Made by a program: the position numbers and the translations under genes
The notes under the pieces: generated by a model
The model's database searches: none
What the model saw: only the letters and a program-made list of their open reading frames with translations
Told to the model about the DNA's origin: nothing
In this document: positions 3,022 through 28,797 of the stretch, one piece after another
How the letters are laid out: the number at the start of each line of letters is the position of its first letter
Numbering within the stretch: position 1 is the stretch's first letter
From: an uncultured virus (IMG/VR IMGVR_UViG_3300010355_000481)
Lineage: Duplodnaviria > Heunggongvirae > Uroviricota > Caudoviricetes > Crassvirales
Strand: one strand, 5' to 3'
Virus record (IMG/VR): IMGVR_UViG_3300010355_000481
Length of the DNA: 64,000 bases

Positions 3022-4578
3022 TTATCCGCCGTAAGCGTTCATTAATCTTTTTAAATAATCTTCTTGTGTAGATGGTTGTTGTTTTGCTTGAAACATTTGT
3101 TTCATTATAGCATTCAAGATTATAGGATGTTGTTCTAAAATCGGATTGTTTTGTATCAATGAATTAACCTGTTGCATTTGTGATTGCATAGTAGGTGTAT
3201 TCTGTTTATTCTTTACATCCCAAGCATATTGACGTTTCATACCTTCAATTGCCATATTATATTGCATATTCTCTTGGTACCCCTGCCCAAATAAATTAAG
3301 ATTAGTTGCTCCAATTTGACGACGACTATCATCGACATTTTGATACATCTCATTTAATTTATCTATATATGTAGCACGTTGATTATTATTGTTATTCAAC
3401 ACTTGGTTTTGGATCTCTGCATTTCTGTTTGCATTTGCAGTTAAAACATTTTGGTTTTGAATATTAACCTGGTTACCGTAATTCATAGCTTGCTCTGAGA
3501 ATTGAGTATCCATGAATTGTTTACGTGCCGTATTATCGGTACCGTATTGTTCAGTAGCTTTTCTAGTAGCGTACGCTTGCGATAATGCTGCATTTATTCC
3601 TTGCTGAGGGTCGATAGTTTGGGCTTGGGTTGTATACCCTGATTGTAAAGCTAAAGCCGGTGTATATGCTTTAGGCATTTGCATAAGATTTCCTGCCATA
3701 GAAATTAACTTTGGCGTCCAATCATATTTAGGAATCCAACTGAATTTATTTGGGTCTTCCTGAAAGTCTGCATTAAGGTCTTGACCGTTGCTGTAGTGTT
3801 GAGCAAGTAATGCATCCATATTCATAGGATTGGCTTTCATAATGTCTGATTGATATGTCGGTATAAAACCTACATTAGAGTTTAAAGCGTCCATACTAAT
3901 TCTTTTGCGCCCGCCTTCTGCGTATTTTCCTACCCAACCTCCTTTTGAATACTGCTTTGCAATACGATCTGATACGATATCTTGAGGTTGTAAATTTCCA
4001 TACTCAGGCAATTGTCCGTCTGGTTTACGTATTTCTTGAAGTGCAGCTATAGTACCTGCTTTTTGTTGATACTTTTCTGTCATCAACCTTGCTGTATTTT
4101 TCTCTGCAAAACTTTTTGAGTTTTCTAAGAAATCTAACATCTGGTTATTATGCTTGATATCAATATTGCGTTTGAATACTTTTGCCGGCGTATTATTTTT
4201 TAAACCACCTTTAGCGTATCCTCCTAATTTGAAGGTTTCTAACTCCTCTGGTGTCATAGCCATGGATTTATCTTTCGAGAAGATAAAAGATCCGTCAGGT
4301 ACATTTAATGGCGTACCTCCTTTAGAGTGTGGTTTACCTTTAATATCATGGAAACCAACACCTAACGGGTTAAATGATGATAAAATTTCCCCCTTCTCTG
4401 CTTCGATATTTGCAACTTCTTTATCTACGGCTTTCGCGGAAGTCGTAACTTCTTTAGATTCATTTCTATGTAAATAGGAAATTAGTCCTGACGGATTATA
4501 CCTTGGAGATATTCCAAAAGGGTTTACATTAGGATAATATCCTTTAAATGGTGAGTTAGGTGCTGTGTTAATAGGCAT
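3022..4578 (-). CDS. Putative virion cargo protein
   Basis: 518 aa; EAEKGE...GKPHSKGG segment; YAKGG/YSKGG/YAEGG motifs; Q/N-rich C-terminus. Confidence 0.55.
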   Translation of the reverse strand: MPINTAPNSPFKGYYPNVNPFGISPRYNPSGLISYLHRNESKEVTTSAKAVDKEVANIEAEKGEILSSFNPLGVGFHDIKGKPHSKGGTPLNVPDGSFIFSKDKSMAMTPEELETFKLGGYAKGGLKNNTPAKVFKRNIDIKHNNQMLDFLENSKSFAEKNTARLMTEKYQQKAGTIAALQEIRKPDGQLPEYGNLQPQDIVSDRIAKQYSKGGWVGKYAEGGRKRISMDALNSNVGFIPTYQSDIMKANPMNMDALLAQHYSNGQDLNADFQEDPNKFSWIPKYDWTPKLISMAGNLMQMPKAYTPALALQSGYTTQAQTIDPQQGINAALSQAYATRKATEQYGTDNTARKQFMDTQFSEQAMNYGNQVNIQNQNVLTANANRNAEIQNQVLNNNNNQRATYIDKLNEMYQNVDDSRRQIGATNLNLFGQGYQENMQYNMAIEGMKRQYAWDVKNKQNTPTMQSQMQQVNSLIQNNPILEQHPIILNAIMKQMFQAKQQPSTQEDYLKRLMNAYGG

Positions 4579-21287: not shown

Positions 21288-22133
21288 CTACTTACTAGCT
21301 TCTAGTCCTATGGTATTAGGATAAGAATTATCAACCAATCCGATGATAGAACCTAAAAATGATCTACAAATTCCTTTTTTAGAAATGTGTATATGACATT
21401 CAGGTAATGAATGGGTTAACTCTTCTAATTCTGCTTGACAAGAAACTTTACCTAAAACTTGCATAACTACAGTTCTAGTTATAATTCCTAATTTGTGCAT
21501 ACGTCTTAATATTCTACCTCCGCTACTTTCAGACATTCCAAGTAGTCGGGCCATATGAGTTTTTCCAGATACGATGTATTGTTTATTTTTTGTTCGGGCA
21601 CGCTTCATCCAGTCGTCCGTAGTTATACCTAAAGCTGATGCACATTTTGCAACTTTCTTTAAGATACTGTTACGTTTCTTTTCGCTAGTAATTCTGTCAC
21701 CGATTCTATAATAAGCATCTTCTGTATCTTTCCATTTCTCGATACGGTATTGTTGTTGTTTAAAGTTTTTTAATACAAGACTATGTTGTATTTGGTGGTA
21801 TACTTTTTCCCATGTTAAAGGACCATTACATGTAAATCTTTTAAAACATTCAACGTATCTGTTGAACATTAAATTAGCTTCCCCCACGACACCATCATTT
21901 AGTATCGTACAGATATTGCTAAATTTAATTAAACGAATGGCACCTTTAGTTTGAATTAAAGTACCAGCTTTTAAACCACGGGATTTTATGCTTTGAAATC
22001 TTACTAAACCTAAACCTAAAGAAGCTGCAGCTTGATGATCCGTTTGAACACCATACTGCAATATACCATTATTCCTCATTTTAAGGAGGAAAGAGGCGTC
22101 TGTTAGTAATTTAAGTTTTAATAATTGTTGCAT
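21288..22133 (-). CDS. Basic HTH DNA-binding protein (possibly Rep-like); start revised to ATG 22133
   Basis: THMARLLGMSESSGGRILRRMHKLGII looks like a winged HTH; the longer predicted start runs through a terminator hairpin. Confidence 0.5.
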   Translation of the reverse strand: MQQLLKLKLLTDASFLLKMRNNGILQYGVQTDHQAAASLGLGLVRFQSIKSRGLKAGTLIQTKGAIRLIKFSNICTILNDGVVGEANLMFNRYVECFKRFTCNGPLTWEKVYHQIQHSLVLKNFKQQQYRIEKWKDTEDAYYRIGDRITSEKKRNSILKKVAKCASALGITTDDWMKRARTKNKQYIVSGKTHMARLLGMSESSGGRILRRMHKLGIITRTVVMQVLGKVSCQAELEELTHSLPECHIHISKKGICRSFLGSIIGLVDNSYPNTIGLEASK

Positions 22134-22167
22134 AAAAAAAAATCCTGAAGTATAACCTTCAGGATCC
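22134..22167 (-). terminator. Terminator directly upstream of the HTH gene ATG
   Basis: GGATCCTGAAG-GTTATA-CTTCAGGAT followed by a long U-tract. Confidence 0.7.
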
Positions 22168-22310
22168 TTTTTAGCCGAGACAAAATAATAATTGTTAATT
22201 ATTACAAATATAATTCTCTTTGTGGGAGAAATAAAATCTTTTTTAAACATTAACAATTCTATATTTTTGCTGCCTCGGCTAAGAGTAAACTAAGATATAC
22301 TTGTTACAAT

Positions 22311-22342
22311 CAAAGGTAAGTACTGGTATTGTATTTACCAAA
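22311..22342 (-). promoter_or_regulatory. Bacteroidota sigma-A type promoter
   Basis: TTTG-N20-TACCTTTG. Confidence 0.7.
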
Positions 22343-22360
22343 TATTTATTTATTTATTTG

Positions 22361-22450
22361 TGAGAGCAGTAGGAGTCGAACCTACAATCTTTACCATAAA
22401 GGACCTGATTTACAGTCAGGCAGCACAGACGCCATAGTGCTAATACTCCC
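22361..22450 (-). tRNA. tRNA-Tyr(GTA)
   Basis: CCTGA-CTGTAAA-TCAGG anticodon arm; long variable arm; GTTCGA T-loop. Confidence 0.9.
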
Positions 22451-22454
22451 AGAG

Positions 22455-22537
22455 AGGAAAATTGTGGACTCGAACCACAGTCCAATAAAGGACCTACACC
22501 CTTAGCAAGGGATCTCGAACCTATCGATTAACTTTCC
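22455..22537 (-). tRNA. tRNA-Ser(GCT)
   Basis: CCC-TTGCTAA-GGG anticodon arm; long variable arm. Confidence 0.8.
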
Positions 22538-22540
22538 ATG

Positions 22541-22629
22541 AGGTAGAGACAGGGTTCGAACCTGCACATCAGTTTTACCCGACATCACTGTTTTCAAGAC
22601 AGATAAGTACGCCAGCATTACGCTCTACC
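22541..22629 (-). tRNA. tRNA-Ser(TGA)
   Basis: CTGT-CTTGAAA-ACAG anticodon arm; long variable arm. Confidence 0.9.
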
Positions 22630-22633
22630 ATAG

Positions 22634-22715
22634 TGACCCTAGAGAGATTCGAACTCTCAATCCTCGCGGCAAGGGATTTTAAGTCCCTCATGTATCCCAG
22701 TTCCATCATAAGGCC
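22634..22715 (-). tRNA. tRNA-Leu(TAA)
   Basis: AGGGA-CTTAAAA-TCCCT anticodon arm. Confidence 0.9.
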
Positions 22716-22720
22716 AAGTG

Positions 22721-22764
22721 TACTCGTAGAGGGATTCGAACCCCCAAACCTTTCGGCACCGGTT
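22721..22764 (-). pseudogene. 3' half of an interrupted tRNA-Leu
   Basis: Variable arm, T-arm and acceptor strand TACGAGT-A; pairs with the 5' half at 23545-23580. Confidence 0.8.
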
Positions 22765-22765
22765 G

Positions 22766-22852
22766 TAAGAGAAGAGGGATTCGAACCCTCACGCTACTAT
22801 TATTTCGCTTTCGATTCTAAATCGAAATTGTCTACCATTCCAGCATTCTCCC
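22766..22852 (-). tRNA. tRNA-Leu(TAG), overlapping the 3' end of the HNH gene
   Basis: TTCGA-TTTAGAA-TCGAA anticodon arm; complete cloverleaf. Confidence 0.9.
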
Positions 22853-23492
22853 ATGCTTTTATCCATTTTCTAATACAATTATCAGATACCCCATATTCCT
22901 TACCTGTACCCACAAACCCTAACGAATTTATCTTTACTTTCAACACATCTAAACTTGGTCTATCTACTACTTTCCGTAAGTGGCTTCTACCTATCTTTTT
23001 ATACACCGCCTTTTTCCTTACAACTTTTTCTTTAATAGGTTTATCTTTTTTGAGCCTATCTCTAGTAACACTTGCATGACAATTTGGGCATAATATTTGT
23101 AAGTTACTTAATTCATTATTAAAATGATCACTATCAATATGATCAAGTTCTAATACTATAGGTTTACCTCCCCACTCTGATAAACAACATATCTCACATT
23201 TATATTCTTTGTAACCATCCCTTATTAATCTTTCCCTTAATTTAGCACTACTGGTTGGAAAATCTTTTTTACAGTACTCAAGAGCATCTTTTTTTGTAAA
23301 TTTTTTGTTTTTACGCCACCCTTGACCTAAAAAATAATCAGGGGTTTCTATTCCAAAAAATTTAGCTCTTCTAGTTAAATGAGACTGACTACCAGTCCTA
23401 GGGCGAATATTTAGTTTTCTACATACATCCGCCCACGATTTAGAACCAATTAAAGCCTTTTCTATTATTTCCTTTGTATATTTAATCTTCAT
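22800..23492 (-). CDS. HNH homing endonuclease
   Basis: CEIC...LELDHIDSDHFNNELSNLQILCPNCH; N- and C-terminal HTH-like segments. Confidence 0.9.
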   Translation of the reverse strand: MKIKYTKEIIEKALIGSKSWADVCRKLNIRPRTGSQSHLTRRAKFFGIETPDYFLGQGWRKNKKFTKKDALEYCKKDFPTSSAKLRERLIRDGYKEYKCEICCLSEWGGKPIVLELDHIDSDHFNNELSNLQILCPNCHASVTRDRLKKDKPIKEKVVRKKAVYKKIGRSHLRKVVDRPSLDVLKVKINSLGFVGTGKEYGVSDNCIRKWIKAWENAGMVDNFDLESKAK

Positions 23493-23544
23493 ACTAGTAT
23501 AGGTTATAATTTAAGATACAACATCTATACTAGAATCCAAAACA

Positions 23545-23580
23545 TAAAACTATCGTGTAGACCAATTCCACCATACGAGC
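23545..23580 (-). pseudogene. 5' half of the interrupted tRNA-Leu
   Basis: GCTCGTA-TGGTGGAATTGGTCTACACG-ATAGT-TTTA, broken at the anticodon. Confidence 0.8.
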
Positions 23581-23612
23581 AAAAAAAAATCCCCATCTGG
23601 AAAGACGGGGAC
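23581..23612 (-). terminator. Attenuator terminator of tRNA operon 1
   Basis: GTCCCCGTCT-TTCC-AGATGGGGAT plus U-tract abutting the first tRNA. Confidence 0.85.
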
Positions 23613-23638
23613 TAAAAATGCAAAATTAATATACATAG

Positions 23639-23701
23639 CTATCCCAGTCGATCCAATAGGCTCGATAACAGATAACTATATGACAAACGAAAATTCTTCA
23701 T
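23639..23701 (-). CDS. Leader peptide 1 MKNFRLSYSYLLSSLLDRLG
   Basis: 11 consecutive Leu/Ser/Tyr codons; lies between promoter and terminator. Confidence 0.85.
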   Translation of the reverse strand: MKNFRLSYSYLLSSLLDRLG

Positions 23702-23707
23702 TACAAT

Positions 23708-23739
23708 CAAAGATAGGTTACTCATTTTAAACTACCAAA
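23708..23739 (-). promoter_or_regulatory. Promoter of tRNA operon 1
   Basis: TTTG-N20-TATCTTTG. Confidence 0.75.
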
Positions 23740-23757
23740 TATTTCTTTACTTTTTTG

Positions 23758-23828
23758 TGGATACTGTTGGATTCGAACCAAATACTATCTCATTGCAAGT
23801 GAGAAGTGCTACCATCGCATCAGCCTCA
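23758..23828 (-). tRNA. tRNA-Ala(TGC)
   Basis: TCTCA-CTTGCAA-TGAGA anticodon arm; imperfect acceptor stem. Confidence 0.75.
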
Positions 23829-23832
23829 TGTG

Positions 23833-23905
23833 TAGGATTACCTGGATTTGAACCAGGAACGCTTGAGTATCAGTCAAGTATAATAACCAATTTTAATATA
23901 ATCCT
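23833..23905 (-). tRNA. tRNA-Ile(GAT)
   Basis: CTTGA-CTGATAC-TCAAG anticodon arm. Confidence 0.85.
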
Positions 23906-23910
23906 AAATG

Positions 23911-23984
23911 TTGATCCTCAGAGTCTCGAACTCTGTACCTCGCGATTATGAGTCGCACGCTCTAACCGGATGAGCTAAGGATCG
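23911..23984 (-). tRNA. tRNA with CAT anticodon, probably Ile2 (lysidine)
   Basis: GCGA-CTCATAA-TCGC arm and D-arm resemble bacterial tRNA-Ile2; C1:A72 mismatch leaves fMet possible. Confidence 0.75.
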
Positions 23985-23989
23985 ATATG

Positions 23990-24060
23990 CAGTCTATACG
24001 AGACTCGAACTCGTTTCCCCACCGTGACAAGGTGAGAGGATACCCATACCCCAATAGACT
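23990..24060 (-). tRNA. tRNA-Asp(GTC)
   Basis: TCACC-TTGTCAC-GGTGG anticodon arm. Confidence 0.85.
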
Positions 24061-24067
24061 ATTTTTG

Positions 24068-24139
24068 TACTCCTAACGGGAATCGAACCCGTGTCTGCTC
24101 ATGGAAAGTGAGCTATCCTAACCGCTAGAAGATAGGAGC
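24068..24139 (-). tRNA. tRNA-Glu(TTC)
   Basis: GCTCA-CTTTCCA-TGAGC anticodon arm. Confidence 0.9.
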
Positions 24140-24144
24140 AAATG

Positions 24145-24215
24145 TGCAGTATGTAGGAGTCAAACCTACGCAACTTGATTGGAAGTCAAGGGTGCTATCG
24201 TAACACTTATACTGC
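24145..24215 (-). tRNA. tRNA-Gly(TCC)
   Basis: CTTGA-CTTCCAA-TCAAG anticodon arm. Confidence 0.85.
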
Positions 24216-24280
24216 ATGTATATGTAATCACATATAAATTGATAGTTTATACTATTTTTATATGTAAAAACATATGATTG

Positions 24281-24362
24281 TAGCGGGGGTCCGATTCGAA
24301 CGGACGTCTTTTATTTTTCCAGGTTATGAGTCTGGTGACCTCAACCACTAGTCCACCCCGCC
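24281..24362 (-). tRNA. tRNA-Met(CAT) with enlarged A-rich variable loop
   Basis: CCAGA-CTCATAA-CCTGG anticodon arm; acceptor GGCGGGG/CCCCGCT. Confidence 0.8.
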
Positions 24363-24365
24363 ATG

Positions 24366-24439
24366 CGGACAACGTAGGGCTCGAACCTACTATCCTCTGT
24401 TTAACAAACAGCCGCTTATACCACTTAAGCTTCTCGTCC
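24366..24439 (-). tRNA. tRNA-Asn(GTT)
   Basis: CTGT-TTGTTAA-ACAG anticodon arm. Confidence 0.85.
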
Positions 24440-24449
24440 AGTATTTTTG

Positions 24450-24522
24450 CAGATCTGCAGGGATTCAAACCCTGATAAACTCCTTAGAACGAAGTTGTCC
24501 TATTCAGTTAAACGACAGATCT
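24450..24522 (-). tRNA. tRNA-Arg(TCT)
   Basis: ACTTC-GTTCTAA-GGAGT anticodon arm. Confidence 0.85.
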
Positions 24523-24528
24523 ATGTTG

Positions 24529-24601
24529 TTGGATGACAGAGAATCGAACTCTGGACTCCTCCTTGTAAGGGAGGGATGATTAACCACTTCACCATCTTCC
24601 A
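24529..24601 (-). tRNA. tRNA-Val(TAC)
   Basis: CCTCC-CTTACAA-GGAGG anticodon arm. Confidence 0.85.
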
Positions 24602-24610
24602 ATATTTTTG

Positions 24611-24683
24611 TACCCCTGCCGAGAGTCGAACTCGGCCCCACGGATTAAAAGTCCGTTGCCTACTACCAGTTTGCTACAAGGGT
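24611..24683 (-). tRNA. tRNA-Lys(TTT)
   Basis: ACGGA-CTTTTAA-TCCGT anticodon arm. Confidence 0.9.
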
Positions 24684-24689
24684 AAAAAT

Positions 24690-24721
24690 AAAAAACCCCG
24701 GTAGCTATCTGGCTCCGGGGT
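24690..24721 (-). terminator. Attenuator terminator of tRNA operon 2
   Basis: ACCCCGGAGC-CAGATA-GCTACCGGGGT plus U-tract. Confidence 0.85.
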
Positions 24722-24743
24722 CTTCTAAAAGTTTTATATACAC

Positions 24744-24809
24744 TTAGACATAAATAGACCCGGAGCCAGACTTCTCATCTGCCACTCTCCCGATAATATT
24801 TATGATCAT
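24744..24809 (-). CDS. Leader peptide 2 MIINIIGRVADEKSGSGSIYV (alternative GTG start at 24821)
   Basis: First 13 codons use exactly the ten amino acids of the downstream tRNAs. Confidence 0.85.
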   Translation of the reverse strand: MIINIIGRVADEKSGSGSIYV

Positions 24810-24839
24810 TATTTGTTGCACTATTTAAATTTTATGTTA

Positions 24840-24847
24840 CAAATGTA
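24840..24847 (-). promoter_or_regulatory. Promoter (-7 box) of tRNA operon 2
   Basis: TACATTTG. Confidence 0.6.
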
Positions 24848-24903
24848 ACGCTGTTTATAATTCAAGTTACATCTTTATTTGATAATAACAAATTTTTTGC
24901 TAA

Positions 24904-25104
24904 TTATTTTTTAAATTTCTTTTCGTAGACTTCTATCATCTTATTATGATAATTTAATAACCCAGTTTCATTAGTAATATTTCCATTAGGTATTCTGAAT
25001 TTATTTTTATCAATCTTTTTTACAAAAATATCTGATTCAGTTAAACCAGTAGTAATCAATACACTATTTACTGTTTTCTTTAATTTCTCTATACTTATAT
25101 TCAT
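24904..25104 (-). CDS. Hypothetical protein between tRNA operons
   Basis: 66 aa; own TATCTTTG box just upstream. Confidence 0.55.
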   Translation of the reverse strand: MNISIEKLKKTVNSVLITTGLTESDIFVKKIDKNKFRIPNGNITNETGLLNYHNKMIEVYEKKFKK

Positions 25105-25133
25105 AATGCAAAGATAAGTCTTTTATTTTAAAG

Positions 25134-25206
25134 TTTTCCAGACAGGACTCGAACCTGTACCCTCGAATCCGTAGTCCGAGATCCTATCCAATTAAACGAC
25201 AGGAAA
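25134..25206 (-). tRNA. tRNA-Arg(ACG)
   Basis: TCGGA-CTACGGA-TTCGA anticodon arm. Confidence 0.85.
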
Positions 25207-25212
25207 ATATAG

Positions 25213-25284
25213 AGTGACTAGCCGGGCTCGAACCGGTCGATAACTACCCCACAAGTAGTCGTGTTACCACTACACTATAGCCAC
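25213..25284 (-). tRNA. tRNA-His(GTG)
   Basis: ACTAC-TTGTGGG-GTAGT anticodon arm. Confidence 0.9.
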
Positions 25285-25286
25285 GG

Positions 25287-25357
25287 TTTTCCCACCTAGA
25301 TTCGAACTAGGAAATTCAGCTCCAAAAACTGACGTGTTACCGTTACACTATGAGAAA
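25287..25357 (-). tRNA. tRNA-Gln(TTG)
   Basis: TCAGT-TTTTGGA-GCTGA anticodon arm. Confidence 0.9.
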
Positions 25358-25362
25358 ATAAG

Positions 25363-25436
25363 AGCTTCTTTACAGACTCGAACTGTATCTATTCCTGATT
25401 ACAAGTCAGGTGCTGCACCATATCAGCATAAGAAGC
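25363..25436 (-). tRNA. tRNA-Thr(TGT)
   Basis: CCTGA-CTTGTAA-TCAGG anticodon arm. Confidence 0.9.
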
Positions 25437-25471
25437 AAAATTGTTTACCTCATCAATAAGGTAAACATTTG

Positions 25472-25548
25472 TGGTACAGACTGGATTCGAACCAGTACAA
25501 ATTTCCCAGGGCTTCAACCTAGAGCTCTACCGTTGGAGCTACTGCACC
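25472..25548 (-). tRNA. tRNA-Phe(GAA)
   Basis: CTAGG-TTGAAGC-CCTGG anticodon arm. Confidence 0.9.
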
Positions 25549-25553
25549 ATAAG

Positions 25554-25629
25554 AGACCGGAACCAGAATCGAACTGGCATTAAATAGGATTTGCAGTTCT
25601 ATGCCTTTTCCAATATTGGCTATCCGATC
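25554..25629 (-). tRNA. tRNA-Cys(GCA)
   Basis: TAGAA-CTGCAAA-TCCTA anticodon arm; U discriminator. Confidence 0.85.
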
Positions 25630-25633
25630 ATTG

Positions 25634-25704
25634 CGTGACGACAGGGATTCGAACCCCGATCAATGGTTTTGGAGACCACCATGCTACCGTTGCACCACCT
25701 TCAC
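25634..25704 (-). tRNA. tRNA-Trp(CCA)
   Basis: GTGGT-CTCCAAA-ACCAT anticodon arm. Confidence 0.9.
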
Positions 25705-25708
25705 AAGT

Positions 25709-25791
25709 CAAGCCAGGTTAGGTCATTACTCCTAATTTTTTACCTTAATCGGTACTGAGGATGTACTAGTATCTTTCCTCCCCTCCAGCTT
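25709..25791 (-). ncRNA. tRNA-sized cloverleaf-like RNA of unknown type
   Basis: Closing stem plus three hairpins; occupies a slot in the tRNA array; no canonical T-loop or anticodon loop. Confidence 0.45.
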
Positions 25792-25793
25792 TG

Positions 25794-25866
25794 TCTACAT
25801 GACCCGATTCGAACAGGCGAAAACTTGGTCCCAAACCAAGTGGATTAACCCCTCTCCCACATGTAG
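25794..25866 (-). tRNA. tRNA-Pro(TGG)
   Basis: CTTGG-TTTGGGA-CCAAG anticodon arm. Confidence 0.9.
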
Positions 25867-26340: not shown

Positions 26341-28797
26341 TTATATTAAATCAATTGTTACACCTTCGAAACTGATATAGATATTTCTAGTAGTATTTAC
26401 ACTAGACATCATTACTCCAGTATGCGTTTCGTTTGTATCATCACGGTATGAAGTATAGTTTCTTTCTAATTGGAATACCGTACCTGCTTTTTTCAAGTTA
26501 AAATTAACGTGAGTATTAACCGAATCATTGATTACGACAGAAGAATAACTATACACTCCATGGCGTTGATAAATAGAATCTTTTAAACCGTAGTTAGCAT
26601 TACTACTCGGTAATGGGTATCCACATAATGATAAACCAGTTGCGTTGAATATATCATCTACGATAGTAGCTTCTGCAAAAGCAGCTGAAACAGAACCTAA
26701 CACGACGATCGATGGCCCAGAAGAGAAATCTTTATATACCCCACCTCTAAACTTCAATTTATTATTTTCTACGATATATTCTAAACCATCAGGTAACCAA
26801 GCATTTTGTAAAATACCAGAAGGTACCGCTTGGTATGAAGTACATGCAGTTGGTACATAACCCAATGTAGTTGTGTATACTGCAGAAACCCCAGTAGTTA
26901 ACAAAGAGCATTGTCTTGTGACTTGGATATTTAAAGTATGAGGGATCTTCGTACCGAAGAAAGGCATCGATACTACTGTCTTAGCGAAAGTAGGGTTATA
27001 CGTTGATACTAAGGCGATAACATGTGCAGGATTTCCAGATACGTTTGTATAATCTACTTTTACCGAAACCATATCATCATCGTTGGCGCCTAACCAACCA
27101 ACTAATAGGTTTGTATCATCTCCGTCATTTTGGATAACAAAACTAATTTCAGGAGCAGTTACTGTAGCACAAGGGTTTGTACTTTGTAATTTAAGATCTA
27201 TTAAACCACAATCGGTACCACTTGGATCCTGAACAATAGATATGCTATTATCAGAAGAAGTAAAGTGAATATCTTCGGAAGGGTTTAACATAATTGAAGC
27301 CCATTCGCCATCACCGTTAGTACATTTTGCACGAACACGTGCACCTAAAATATCACAAGAAATACTAGGGAAAGCCGTCATATTATATTTAAGTATACCA
27401 GAAGCTACACTTACATAATTAGCATCACCATTTATCCATGTTAATGGTGAACCGGTAGTACCTCTAAATTCAACTTCATAATCGGTATTAATACTTGTAT
27501 GACCAGAAAATTCAAATATAAAGTTAGTCCCATCATTGTAAAGACGTAAACCGTACGCAAGTAAAGGAGATTGTACAAATACTCCCCCGTCGGTACCAGC
27601 TTGTGCAGCATTACAAGTATCTGTCGAATATGAAACAGGGCTACTTGGTACATATAAACCATTACCTGTATTCACCAAAATATTACCGCCAGTAAGTGTA
27701 TCTATATTTACATCGGCTTTAATACCTGCAGCATCACTTGATAAAGTAACGGAAGAAGTATTTTGGAAAATAACATCAGATTTAATGATATTACCTGGAA
27801 GGATAGTCATGTTTACAGTATCAGTATCTGATATCGAAACAGCACCAGAAGCCATCGGTACGTACAACCCAGTCGGCAATACTTGTAAGGCATTCGTACC
27901 CGATGGATCAAGTATAACTTGAGATGACAAATTATATCCACCTAATATAGGCGTTAAAGTATGACCTACTGATGGGCTATTTGCCGTAGTAAGTAATGTA
28001 TTTCCAGAAGGGCAACATCCGATGTTTATACCATTAGGGCCGTAAGTAATTGGCGCAGCACTTGCAGGGTCAAATCTAACTTGAGCACTTACTTGATAAT
28101 TATTACCTGAAGGAGTTACTGTTATATCGACTGAAGAAGTATCTAAACCAGAAACTGTAGTTGCAGGACCAGAAGTTGTTGGTGGTGCAACATATAAACC
28201 ATTAGGTCCAACTTGGATAGCATTACCAGGAGTTGTATCTATTTTAACAAGAGATTGGACTGAATATCCACCTACTGTAGGAAGCACGGTAGTATCTACT
28301 GTATTTGTATCGATACCTACTAATGTTGTACTTGCCGTAGACGGTGATGGACATGCCATATATAAACCATCTGACAAAATTTGTAAACAGTTATTAGAAG
28401 TAGCTGACAATCTTACGGCTGCAACTAATTGTTCATTTAGGCCGACATTTGTATTAAGGATACTGACAGAACTGCTACCTACAATCTTATCACTTAGGTA
28501 GCCTGATGTACTATCAGATGCAGAAGCTTTTACCCTAATATCGGTAGCTGTTACGACGATATTTCCACAAAGTTTTTGTGCGAAGCTTTCAAATACATCT
28601 GTAAATGAAGTCCCTTTTAAAATAGTATCGGCACAAACCGTTAAATCTTTCGATAAAAATAAACAATCACCCCAGTTAGGGTGTAAACATCCTGTAGTAC
28701 AAGGAGTTGGAGGGCAAGGTTGTGGGTTACAATTACAAGGACAAGGCGTACCACAAGGGTCTGGGCAGCATTTATTACAAGTTGTGTGGTGAGACAT
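26341..28797 (-). CDS. Fibre/spike structural protein
   Basis: 818 aa; Cys/Pro-rich N-terminus; repeated N(A/C)(L/I)QxxxxGLY units. Confidence 0.65.
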   Translation of the reverse strand: MSHHTTCNKCCPDPCGTPCPCNCNPQPCPPTPCTTGCLHPNWGDCLFLSKDLTVCADTILKGTSFTDVFESFAQKLCGNIVVTATDIRVKASASDSTSGYLSDKIVGSSSVSILNTNVGLNEQLVAAVRLSATSNNCLQILSDGLYMACPSPSTASTTLVGIDTNTVDTTVLPTVGGYSVQSLVKIDTTPGNAIQVGPNGLYVAPPTTSGPATTVSGLDTSSVDITVTPSGNNYQVSAQVRFDPASAAPITYGPNGINIGCCPSGNTLLTTANSPSVGHTLTPILGGYNLSSQVILDPSGTNALQVLPTGLYVPMASGAVSISDTDTVNMTILPGNIIKSDVIFQNTSSVTLSSDAAGIKADVNIDTLTGGNILVNTGNGLYVPSSPVSYSTDTCNAAQAGTDGGVFVQSPLLAYGLRLYNDGTNFIFEFSGHTSINTDYEVEFRGTTGSPLTWINGDANYVSVASGILKYNMTAFPSISCDILGARVRAKCTNGDGEWASIMLNPSEDIHFTSSDNSISIVQDPSGTDCGLIDLKLQSTNPCATVTAPEISFVIQNDGDDTNLLVGWLGANDDDMVSVKVDYTNVSGNPAHVIALVSTYNPTFAKTVVSMPFFGTKIPHTLNIQVTRQCSLLTTGVSAVYTTTLGYVPTACTSYQAVPSGILQNAWLPDGLEYIVENNKLKFRGGVYKDFSSGPSIVVLGSVSAAFAEATIVDDIFNATGLSLCGYPLPSSNANYGLKDSIYQRHGVYSYSSVVINDSVNTHVNFNLKKAGTVFQLERNYTSYRDDTNETHTGVMMSSVNTTRNIYISFEGVTIDLI

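Follow-up and report, generated by a model that had tools for sequence, protein, structure and literature searches.

How can a gene for a homing endonuclease persist in the middle of a transfer RNA (tRNA) gene when no intron is there to splice it out? The question is raised by a 64,000-nucleotide (nt) stretch of DNA from an uncultured wastewater phage of the Crassvirales (IMG/VR record IMGVR_UViG_3300010355_000481), which we call the window. Here, an HNH endonuclease gene and a complete tRNA-Leu(TAG) gene together separate the two halves of another tRNA-Leu(TAG) gene. To our knowledge, homing endonucleases have been thought to survive in essential genes only by way of self-splicing introns or inteins, or else to sit between genes. 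Our preferred reading of the locus, to which we give a probability of roughly 0.6, is that of a free-standing HNH homing endonuclease fused to a spare tRNA-Leu(UAG) and lodged in the resident tRNA-Leu(UAG) gene, in a "home-and-rescue" layout.

The resident tRNA gene with and without the cassette

The locus lies in a cluster of 21 tRNAs called by ARAGORN (22360-25866), and the cassette, the two remnants of the interrupted gene, the HNH gene and both tRNA-Leu genes are all on the minus strand. The 5' remnant (23554-23580, 27 nt) reads as the start of a class II tRNA, with the acceptor 5' strand, U8, a D arm carrying its GG and position 26. The 3' remnant (22721-22764, 44 nt) resumes at position 38 and comprises the anticodon-stem 3' strand, the variable arm, the T arm, the acceptor 3' strand and a discriminator A. 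The acceptor strands of the two remnants (GCTCGTA at 23580-23574 and TACGAGT at 22728-22722) pair at 7 of 7 positions, an outcome with a chance of about 0.0014 for one fixed pair of 7-mers in DNA of the same composition. Between the remnants, the inserted cassette (22765-23553) spans 789 base pairs (bp) and consists of a 61-nt leader, a 230-codon HNH endonuclease gene and the complete tRNA-Leu(TAG). Its G+C content is 32.1%, against 41.1% in the flanks.

We compared contigs from four wastewater or activated-sludge sequencing runs with positions 21800-25000 of the window. Two activated-sludge runs covered this stretch almost fully and other wastewater runs covered it in part; runs X3, X4 and X5 had stretches without cover, and these gaps were given no meaning. 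In run X5, a single contig (record 25; 826 nt, depth 5.2) carries the empty site. It matches the window at 22592-22764 without a difference and at 23554-23905 with a single one (at 23826), and at the joint 22764/23554 it has 11 letters where the window has 789. We joined these 11 letters to both window remnants by script to rebuild the resident allele, which ARAGORN folds as an 82-nt canonical tRNA-Leu(TAG). The rebuilt tRNA has a 7-bp acceptor stem, a 3-bp D stem, a 5-bp T stem, a short variable arm and an anticodon stem of 5-6 bp (CTGGT/ACCGG) closing the loop CTTAGGA. The intact tRNA-Leu(TAG) gene is the older state, and a near-identical phage keeps it.

Comparison of the two alleles shows what was lost from the resident gene, namely tRNA positions 27-37, which comprise the 5' strand of the anticodon stem and the loop through position 37. 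With these positions gone, both remnants are dead and the resident target gene is destroyed. A copy of the resident anticodon arm with up to three mismatches was found nowhere in the 64-kb window. Both remnants are identical to the intact allele, which implies that the insertion is recent or is kept fresh by ongoing conversion.

An earlier note on this DNA, made from the sequence alone, had described a cassette inserted into a tRNA-Leu anticodon between halves with complementary acceptor strands, and had suggested looking for an uninterrupted allele in relatives. The pairing of the acceptor strands holds, the resident gene is interrupted, and the X5 contig provides the uninterrupted allele; the insertion, however, was not a clean one, since 789 bp replaced 11 bp. 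The 5' half had also been drawn too long, ending at 23545: sequence of the old tRNA extends only to 23554, positions 23545-23553 belong to the cassette, and their resemblance to an anticodon arm is due to chance. The note was right that the anticodon stems of the halves no longer pair: when the halves are joined directly as it drew them, ARAGORN finds only a stem with mispairs and an "anticodon" of four letters. Finally, it had placed the element under the control of an attenuator. This terminator-like hairpin (23588-23613; 11 pairs followed by a T run, 7 nt upstream of the old tRNA 5' end) is also present in the empty-site contig, and so is part of the resident locus rather than a property of the cassette.

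The occupied form is not confined to the window. In run X2 it is covered by two contigs (22369-23354 and 23353-23911, with 0 and 1 letters different) that abut or overlap by 2 nt at 23353-23354. A contig of run X4 (23320-23623) spans the left cassette junction, and an independent activated-sludge contig from ENA (L004) shows the right one. The 789-bp insert is accordingly a presence/absence polymorphism between near-identical flanks, absent from X5 and present in the window, X2, X4 and L004. When we searched metagenome contigs with a 32-mer of the 3' remnant, the only match was L004, with the same occupied allele; the same 32-mer had no match in the genome collection, and an acceptor-anchored gapped pattern for further empty sites had none in IMG/VR.

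Could the split gene or the empty site be a mis-join of metagenome assembly? All of the data are short-read contigs, and the depth of the X5 contig is only 5.2. However, the occupied form recurs in the four sources just named, and the 11 extra letters complete a perfect cloverleaf with the expected anticodon. Because these letters supply exactly the missing stem strand and the anticodon, a chance mis-join would not give the rebuilt tRNA, and we consider an assembly artefact extremely improbable.

The paired acceptor strands and intact remnants also invite the reading that the cassette is a true intron, or the gene a split tRNA gene, with the halves joined as RNA by self-splicing or in trans so that the resident tRNA works. 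Mobile group I introns are known in the anticodon loops of bacterial tRNAs (PMC3984707). Yet the 11 absent nucleotides include the 5' strand of the stem and the whole anticodon, so that removal of the insert gives no tRNA. Moreover, no intron family is among the 25 Rfam matches (E <=10) at 22300-24200, which agrees with the earlier note's failure to see a group I intron core, and the intron mode of ARAGORN (introns <=1500 nt) finds no tRNA bridging the halves. The intron or split-tRNA reading is nearly refuted and we give it almost no credence. With no intron family in Rfam, an open reading frame (ORF) that stands alone and an insert whose removal cannot restore the tRNA, the nuclease gene is free-standing.

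An endonuclease gene that ends inside a tRNA

The nuclease gene (22800-23492) encodes an N-terminal domain, a core of the form CxxC...DH...N...CxxCH characteristic of an HNH (His-Me finger) endonuclease, and a C-terminal helix-turn-helix. Its best-supported assignment is to PHROG 10822, "HNH endonuclease" (E 3.9e-43), which is one of 14 matching PHROG families; 12 more of these are also named HNH endonuclease. In the translation, the motif residues are C99-x2-C102, D117-H118, N125/N126/N130 and C135-x2-C138-H139, which we take to be the HNH catalytic and zinc-binding motif, and they align with those of F-TflIV from phage BF23 and of the HNH protein from Gordonia phage GodonK. BLASTP aligns residues 68-213 of 230 with residues 59-214 of 227 of the BF23 hegA product (H-N-H endonuclease F-TflIV; 35% identity, E 3e-26), leaving the N-terminal 67 residues unaligned, while the GodonK protein is 41% identical over residues 1-152. 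Helix-turn-helix models of Pfam touch residues 197-218 below their cut-offs. A sequence search of the PDB gave nothing significant, the best E value being 0.097, to a zinc finger. Among the PHROG and Pfam matches only HNH families occur and there is no GIY-YIG domain; judged by these family matches, the nuclease is not a member of the SegB-type (GIY-YIG) family.

Upstream of the gene, the leader contains a hairpin (23494-23533) built on a 9-bp perfect inverted repeat, CTAGTATAG / CTATACTAG, that ends 1 nt before the HNH ATG. It appears in both the minimum-energy and the centroid folds of 23470-23660 (z -3.24 for the whole 191 nt). A scan for sigma-70-like promoters, which left other promoter types outside its scope, found none upstream of the HNH start on the minus strand; one minus-strand site lies inside the ORF.

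The cassette-borne tRNA-Leu(TAG) (22766-22852, 87 nt; 22765-22852 in ARAGORN) has the features of a class II tRNA-Leu: a cloverleaf, a long variable arm, the anticodon TAG and a discriminator A. It scores 46.0 bits in Rfam (gathering score 29), within the 45-62 bits of its neighbours, and its function is plausible. Aligned with the resident tRNA, it is identical in 55 of 89 columns, mostly at universal tRNA positions. The two anticodon arms agree at 8 of 17 positions and differ at the other 9; that of the cassette reads TTCGA-TTTAGAA-TCGAA, and the loops are CTTAGGA in the resident and TTTAGAA in the cassette tRNA, around the same anticodon.

The HNH ORF runs into this tRNA. The earlier note had placed the nuclease gene and a complete tRNA-Leu(TAG) between the halves, with the last 53 nt of the ORF, stop codon included, inside the tRNA; the family matches, ARAGORN and Rfam bear out both elements, and the computed overlap is 53 nt. 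The tRNA begins in codon 214, so that residues 215-230 and the stop come from tRNA sequence, and the ORF closes with three consecutive in-frame stops, TAA TAG TAG (22800-22808), in the variable arm. This triple stop forms the loop side of a poorly paired variable arm, which may have changed shape to give the ORF its end. No relative seen is homologous beyond residue 213-214, the very point at which the tRNA begins, and the protein tail is therefore a by-product of the tRNA fusion; one IMG/VR relative continues with about 23 further residues of its own after a shared IRKW motif.

The X5 empty-site contig lacks the cassette tRNA, and in it the resident tRNA-Leu(TAG) leads directly to tRNA-Leu(TAA). 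The latter neighbour is intact in the window (22633-22715; ARAGORN and Rfam, 49.2 bits) and is covered by the X5 contig without a difference. The absence of the spare from the empty site means that nuclease and spare arrived between the two states and, given their overlap, most simply as one piece. This supports the earlier proposal of an intronless element that destroys its target and complements it, in that the target lost positions 27-37 and a copy with the same anticodon came in with the HNH gene.

As to the origin of the spare, its best match among phage tRNAs is 74.4% identical and occurs in Enterococcus Schiekvirus phages, where the tRNA-Leu does not adjoin the HNH relative. In run X3, a contig of 151 nt aligns with the cassette tRNA over window positions 22774-22845; of the 72 letters compared, 9 differ, including three in the 3' strand of the anticodon stem. 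Wastewater therefore contains a tRNA-Leu(TAG) that is related to the spare yet distinct from it, and this tRNA may belong to the donor lineage.

The divergence of loop and stem would also fit a cargo-driven swap, in which the tRNA is the selected payload, its anticodon stem-loop escapes a host anticodon nuclease, and the HNH enzyme drives its spread. Phage tRNAs have been reported as counter-defence against tRNA-cutting systems (PMC10644984, PMC13096335). CTA and CTG are also rare in this phage (5.8 and 2.2 per 1000 codons in 13 long ORFs), which makes decoding demand a weak reason to keep a tRNA-Leu(UAG). However, we know of neither a defence system nor tRNA cleavage in this pair of phage and host, and plain rescue fits the data equally, so that a swap driven by its cargo would surprise us.

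How the element may work, and what weighs against it

The family to which the nuclease belongs is tied to tRNA genes. Counting the IMG/VR contigs L001-L003 as one, six of seven distinct loci of relatives have a tRNA gene within 150 nt of the HNH gene. In L001-L003, a tRNA ends 18 nt upstream of it; in Enterococcus phage Bop (vB_OCPT_Bop), hegA lies between tRNA-Asn and tRNA-Ser; and in GodonK, the HNH gene starts 3 nt after an anticodon-TAG tRNA and overlaps a tRNA-Glu by 10 nt. A tRNA starts 5 nt after the HNH gene of Agrobacterium phage Atu_ph07, and the nearest tRNA is 65 nt away in Rhodococcus phage Dorin and 27 nt away in a T5-like coliphage. The exception is BF23 hegA, at about 950 nt.

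Two observations on these loci stand apart. The tRNA of L001-L003 (2896-2982, 87 nt) has the anticodon TTG (Gln) and a long, class II-like variable arm that is odd for a tRNA-Gln. In phage Bop, the tRNA cluster contains a ROOL RNA (3455-4041; Rfam RF03087, 260 bits), unannotated in the record, immediately downstream of hegA and tRNA-Ser.

A home-and-rescue element at this locus could work as follows. In a mixed infection, the nuclease would cut or nick the intact resident gene in or near the anticodon arm. The break would be repaired from the cassette-bearing genome, with the remnants and the neighbouring tRNA genes serving as homology arms, tRNA-Leu(TAA) providing the right-hand one, and the cassette would be copied in. 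The occupied allele would be immune since the site is gone, and the spare would be immune by virtue of its 9 differing anticodon-arm positions. By restoring the decoding of CUA and CUG, the spare would leave little cost to the phage. As the final 16 codons of the nuclease gene and its stop also come from the spare, recombination could not separate nuclease and rescue. What the data establish is the anatomy of the locus and its two alleles, whereas cleavage of the intact allele, the resistance of the spare and the function of the tRNA are inferred.

The same overlap may regulate the enzyme. An RNase P cut at the 5' end of the spare would strip the last 16 codons and all of the stops from the nuclease mRNA, so that each transcript would yield either tRNA or nuclease and nuclease levels would be kept low. 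Together, the leader hairpin and this predicted RNase P cut suggest expression control.

The strongest competitor to a home-and-rescue element is a recombination scar with a passenger nuclease. On this account, an HNH-tRNA block came in by illegitimate recombination or by exchange between tRNA clusters, the nuclease hits another site (for instance a shared T-loop motif, like SegB) or is no longer active, and the same-anticodon tRNA persists only because variants lacking it were lost to selection. Neither cassette junction has microhomology or a target duplication (shared letters = 0), and other strain-variable breakpoints occur in the same tRNA cluster, at 22592-22594, 24368/24444 and 24608/24748. 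Such an origin would also suit the HNH variants in run X4, one of which has an early stop, and the relatives examined, which have only whole tRNA genes beside the HNH gene. Against it, what the insert displaced is exactly the anticodon arm, in a tRNA with the very anticodon that the cassette brings; neither remnant shows decay (0 differences from the intact allele); the nuclease ORF is whole and retains every core motif; and the HNH family keeps to tRNA genes as described above. We consider the scar unlikely, if far from negligible. A separate candidate for the junction, microhomology through TCTTA, which is common to the cassette end and the 11 replaced letters, was rejected as chance, as the next letters misfit a simple join.

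Several observations weigh against a home-and-rescue element. The empty site is known from one low-depth contig of one run, and that contig departs from the window below 22592, so its source is a relative with another genome. Pfam HNH (PF01844) scores 19.0 bits, under its cut-off of 21.4. In the cassette tRNA, C10 and A25 are mismatched and the variable stem forms only 3 of its 5 pairs, and the rarity of CTA and CTG makes the need for rescue uncertain. The donor was not found: the nearest HNH relatives are 33-41% identical, and a 34-mer of the cassette tRNA had 0 exact partial matches in IMG/VR or the genome collection. At the loci of the relatives, Rfam and ARAGORN gave whole tRNA genes only beside the HNH gene and no partial match, with no search aimed at split halves. 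A T-loop target like that of SegB would leave the spare and the remnants, with GGTTCGAATCCCTC in common, open to cutting. Finally, X4 contigs with the same leader leave the window sequence inside the HNH gene at 23287 and 23458. Over the 30 letters read, the variant at 23287 has an in-frame stop two codons on, while that at 23458 stays in frame with other residues. These variants hint at decay, which is usual for homing endonuclease genes.

More tentatively, and at somewhat less than even odds, the locus may be a member of a widespread, undescribed class of natural phage "home-and-rescue" drives. In such drives, an intron-less HNH gene would enter the anticodon arm of a tRNA with the deletion of about 11 nt, a recoded tRNA with the same anticodon would be fused to its stop codon, and expression of the nuclease would vie with maturation of the tRNA for each transcript. 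In a bolder form, the drives would be vehicles for exchanging tRNA alleles resistant to host anticodon nucleases.

The surrounding tRNA cluster is strain-variable at several places. Contigs stop matching the window at 22592 (X5 record 25 and X4 record 19) and at 22594 (X3 record 9), in the anticodon loop of tRNA-Ser(TGA) (22540-22629, anticodon 22596-22594), the next-but-one tRNA; beyond 22592, the X5 contig continues for about 290 nt that differ from the window. Strains diverge here for a second time at an anticodon loop, and the breakpoint could mark another insert or a swapped 3' part. Elsewhere in run X5, 75 nt around tRNA-Asn(GTT) (24368-24444) are swapped for 78 other letters and 139 nt are skipped at 24608-24748. 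Within the cluster, two tRNAs were missed by default ARAGORN, 24145-24215 (Rfam 55.8 bits) and 24366-24439 (42.6 bits), which relaxed ARAGORN calls Gly(TCC) and Asn(GTT). A candidate Ala(TGC) at 23757-23828 reaches 26.6 bits, against the Rfam gathering score of 29, and has an acceptor mismatch. A 66-codon ORF (24904-25104) without a family match lies in a 450-nt gap of the cluster. Further out, the flanking ORFs 21288-22256 and 26341-28797 have no relative in IMG/VR. The phage has only distant kin among named phages: its portal protein shares 23-26% identity with the portal proteins of a Leptolyngbya phage, a crAss-like phage and Cellulophaga phi17:2-type phages.

Comparison with known systems

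Mobile elements that hit tRNA genes and make good the damage are familiar from integrases, which insert into tRNA genes and restore the 3' end of the gene from the element. Whereas integrases act by site-specific recombination with a short duplicated tRNA segment, the cassette has no integrase, brings a whole unrelated tRNA and leaves the old gene dead.

Among phage nucleases, the nearest precedent that has been put to experimental test is SegB of T4 and T6, which like the cassette enzyme is encoded by a free-standing gene within a phage tRNA cluster, with an ORF tied to tRNA processing. T4 SegB cuts the tRNA genes of phages that lack segB; its inheritance, along with that of the flanking tRNA genes, approaches 100%, at the expense of recipient markers. 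In the discussion of the same article, tRNA processing was proposed to lower the expression of the SegB ORF and, with reference to a personal communication, that of the ORFs of the T5 enzymes (PMC2330249). Homologues of SegB are enriched beside tRNA genes (PMC13096335). In contrast to the cassette enzyme, SegB is a GIY-YIG protein, lies between tRNA genes with no split gene and recognises a T-loop motif, and the parts of the literature on it available to us describe no dedicated same-anticodon spare fused to the ORF.

By sequence, the cassette enzyme is nearer to F-TflIV (hegA), one of the H-N-H endonucleases F-TflI, II and IV of T5 and BF23 (cited in PMC2330249 and PMC10644984), with which it shares the protein family, including the C-terminal helix-turn-helix, and a setting in a tRNA gene region. 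BF23 hegA, however, lies among small ORFs at the distance from the nearest tRNA given above, and no split target or fused tRNA is seen there.

Group I introns of tRNA anticodon loops likewise place a homing endonuclease element in the anticodon region in a form harmless to the carrier (PMC3984707). Their harmlessness comes from splicing; the cassette has no ribozyme and cost the gene 11 nt, and its harmlessness would come from the second gene that it carries. In phage Aeh1, by comparison, both halves of the protein encoded by the nrdA gene that mobE interrupts reportedly reassemble and work. There too, an intron-less endonuclease gene sits inside a functional gene (cited in PMC2330249), but in our locus the tRNA halves cannot work and a replacement is supplied.

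The literature searched yielded no account of an intron-less endonuclease cassette that both splits a tRNA gene and brings a replacement with the same anticodon; what was found concerned SegB, the T5 enzymes, intron-borne endonucleases and split protein genes. A search for work linking "cleave and rescue" to natural phage elements returned engineered drives only. Free-standing homing endonucleases are a known kind of element, and what is new is the built-in rescue gene, documented by an allele pair whose occupied and empty forms, with almost identical flanks, are both in public wastewater data. Such a layout would account for the dead tRNA halves and duplicate isoacceptors of phage tRNA clusters, and would reveal a route for the replacement of tRNA alleles in phage populations. 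That the nuclease stop codon is fused to a tRNA suggests, in addition, a simple processing-based brake on a potentially toxic enzyme.

Read in this way, the locus makes visible in nature a third solution for a nuclease in a gene that its carrier may need, which is to destroy the gene while providing a substitute that should escape the enzyme. Rescue-type gene drives follow the same logic: a nuclease element placed in a needed gene destroys that gene and carries a recoded, uncuttable copy. The engineered "home-and-rescue" and "cleave-and-rescue" drives (PMC7968924) are synthetic CRISPR systems in insects, whereas the cassette is a natural, protein-only phage element in a gene for which need is unproven. 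Its natural layout is the design that engineers later devised for such drives.

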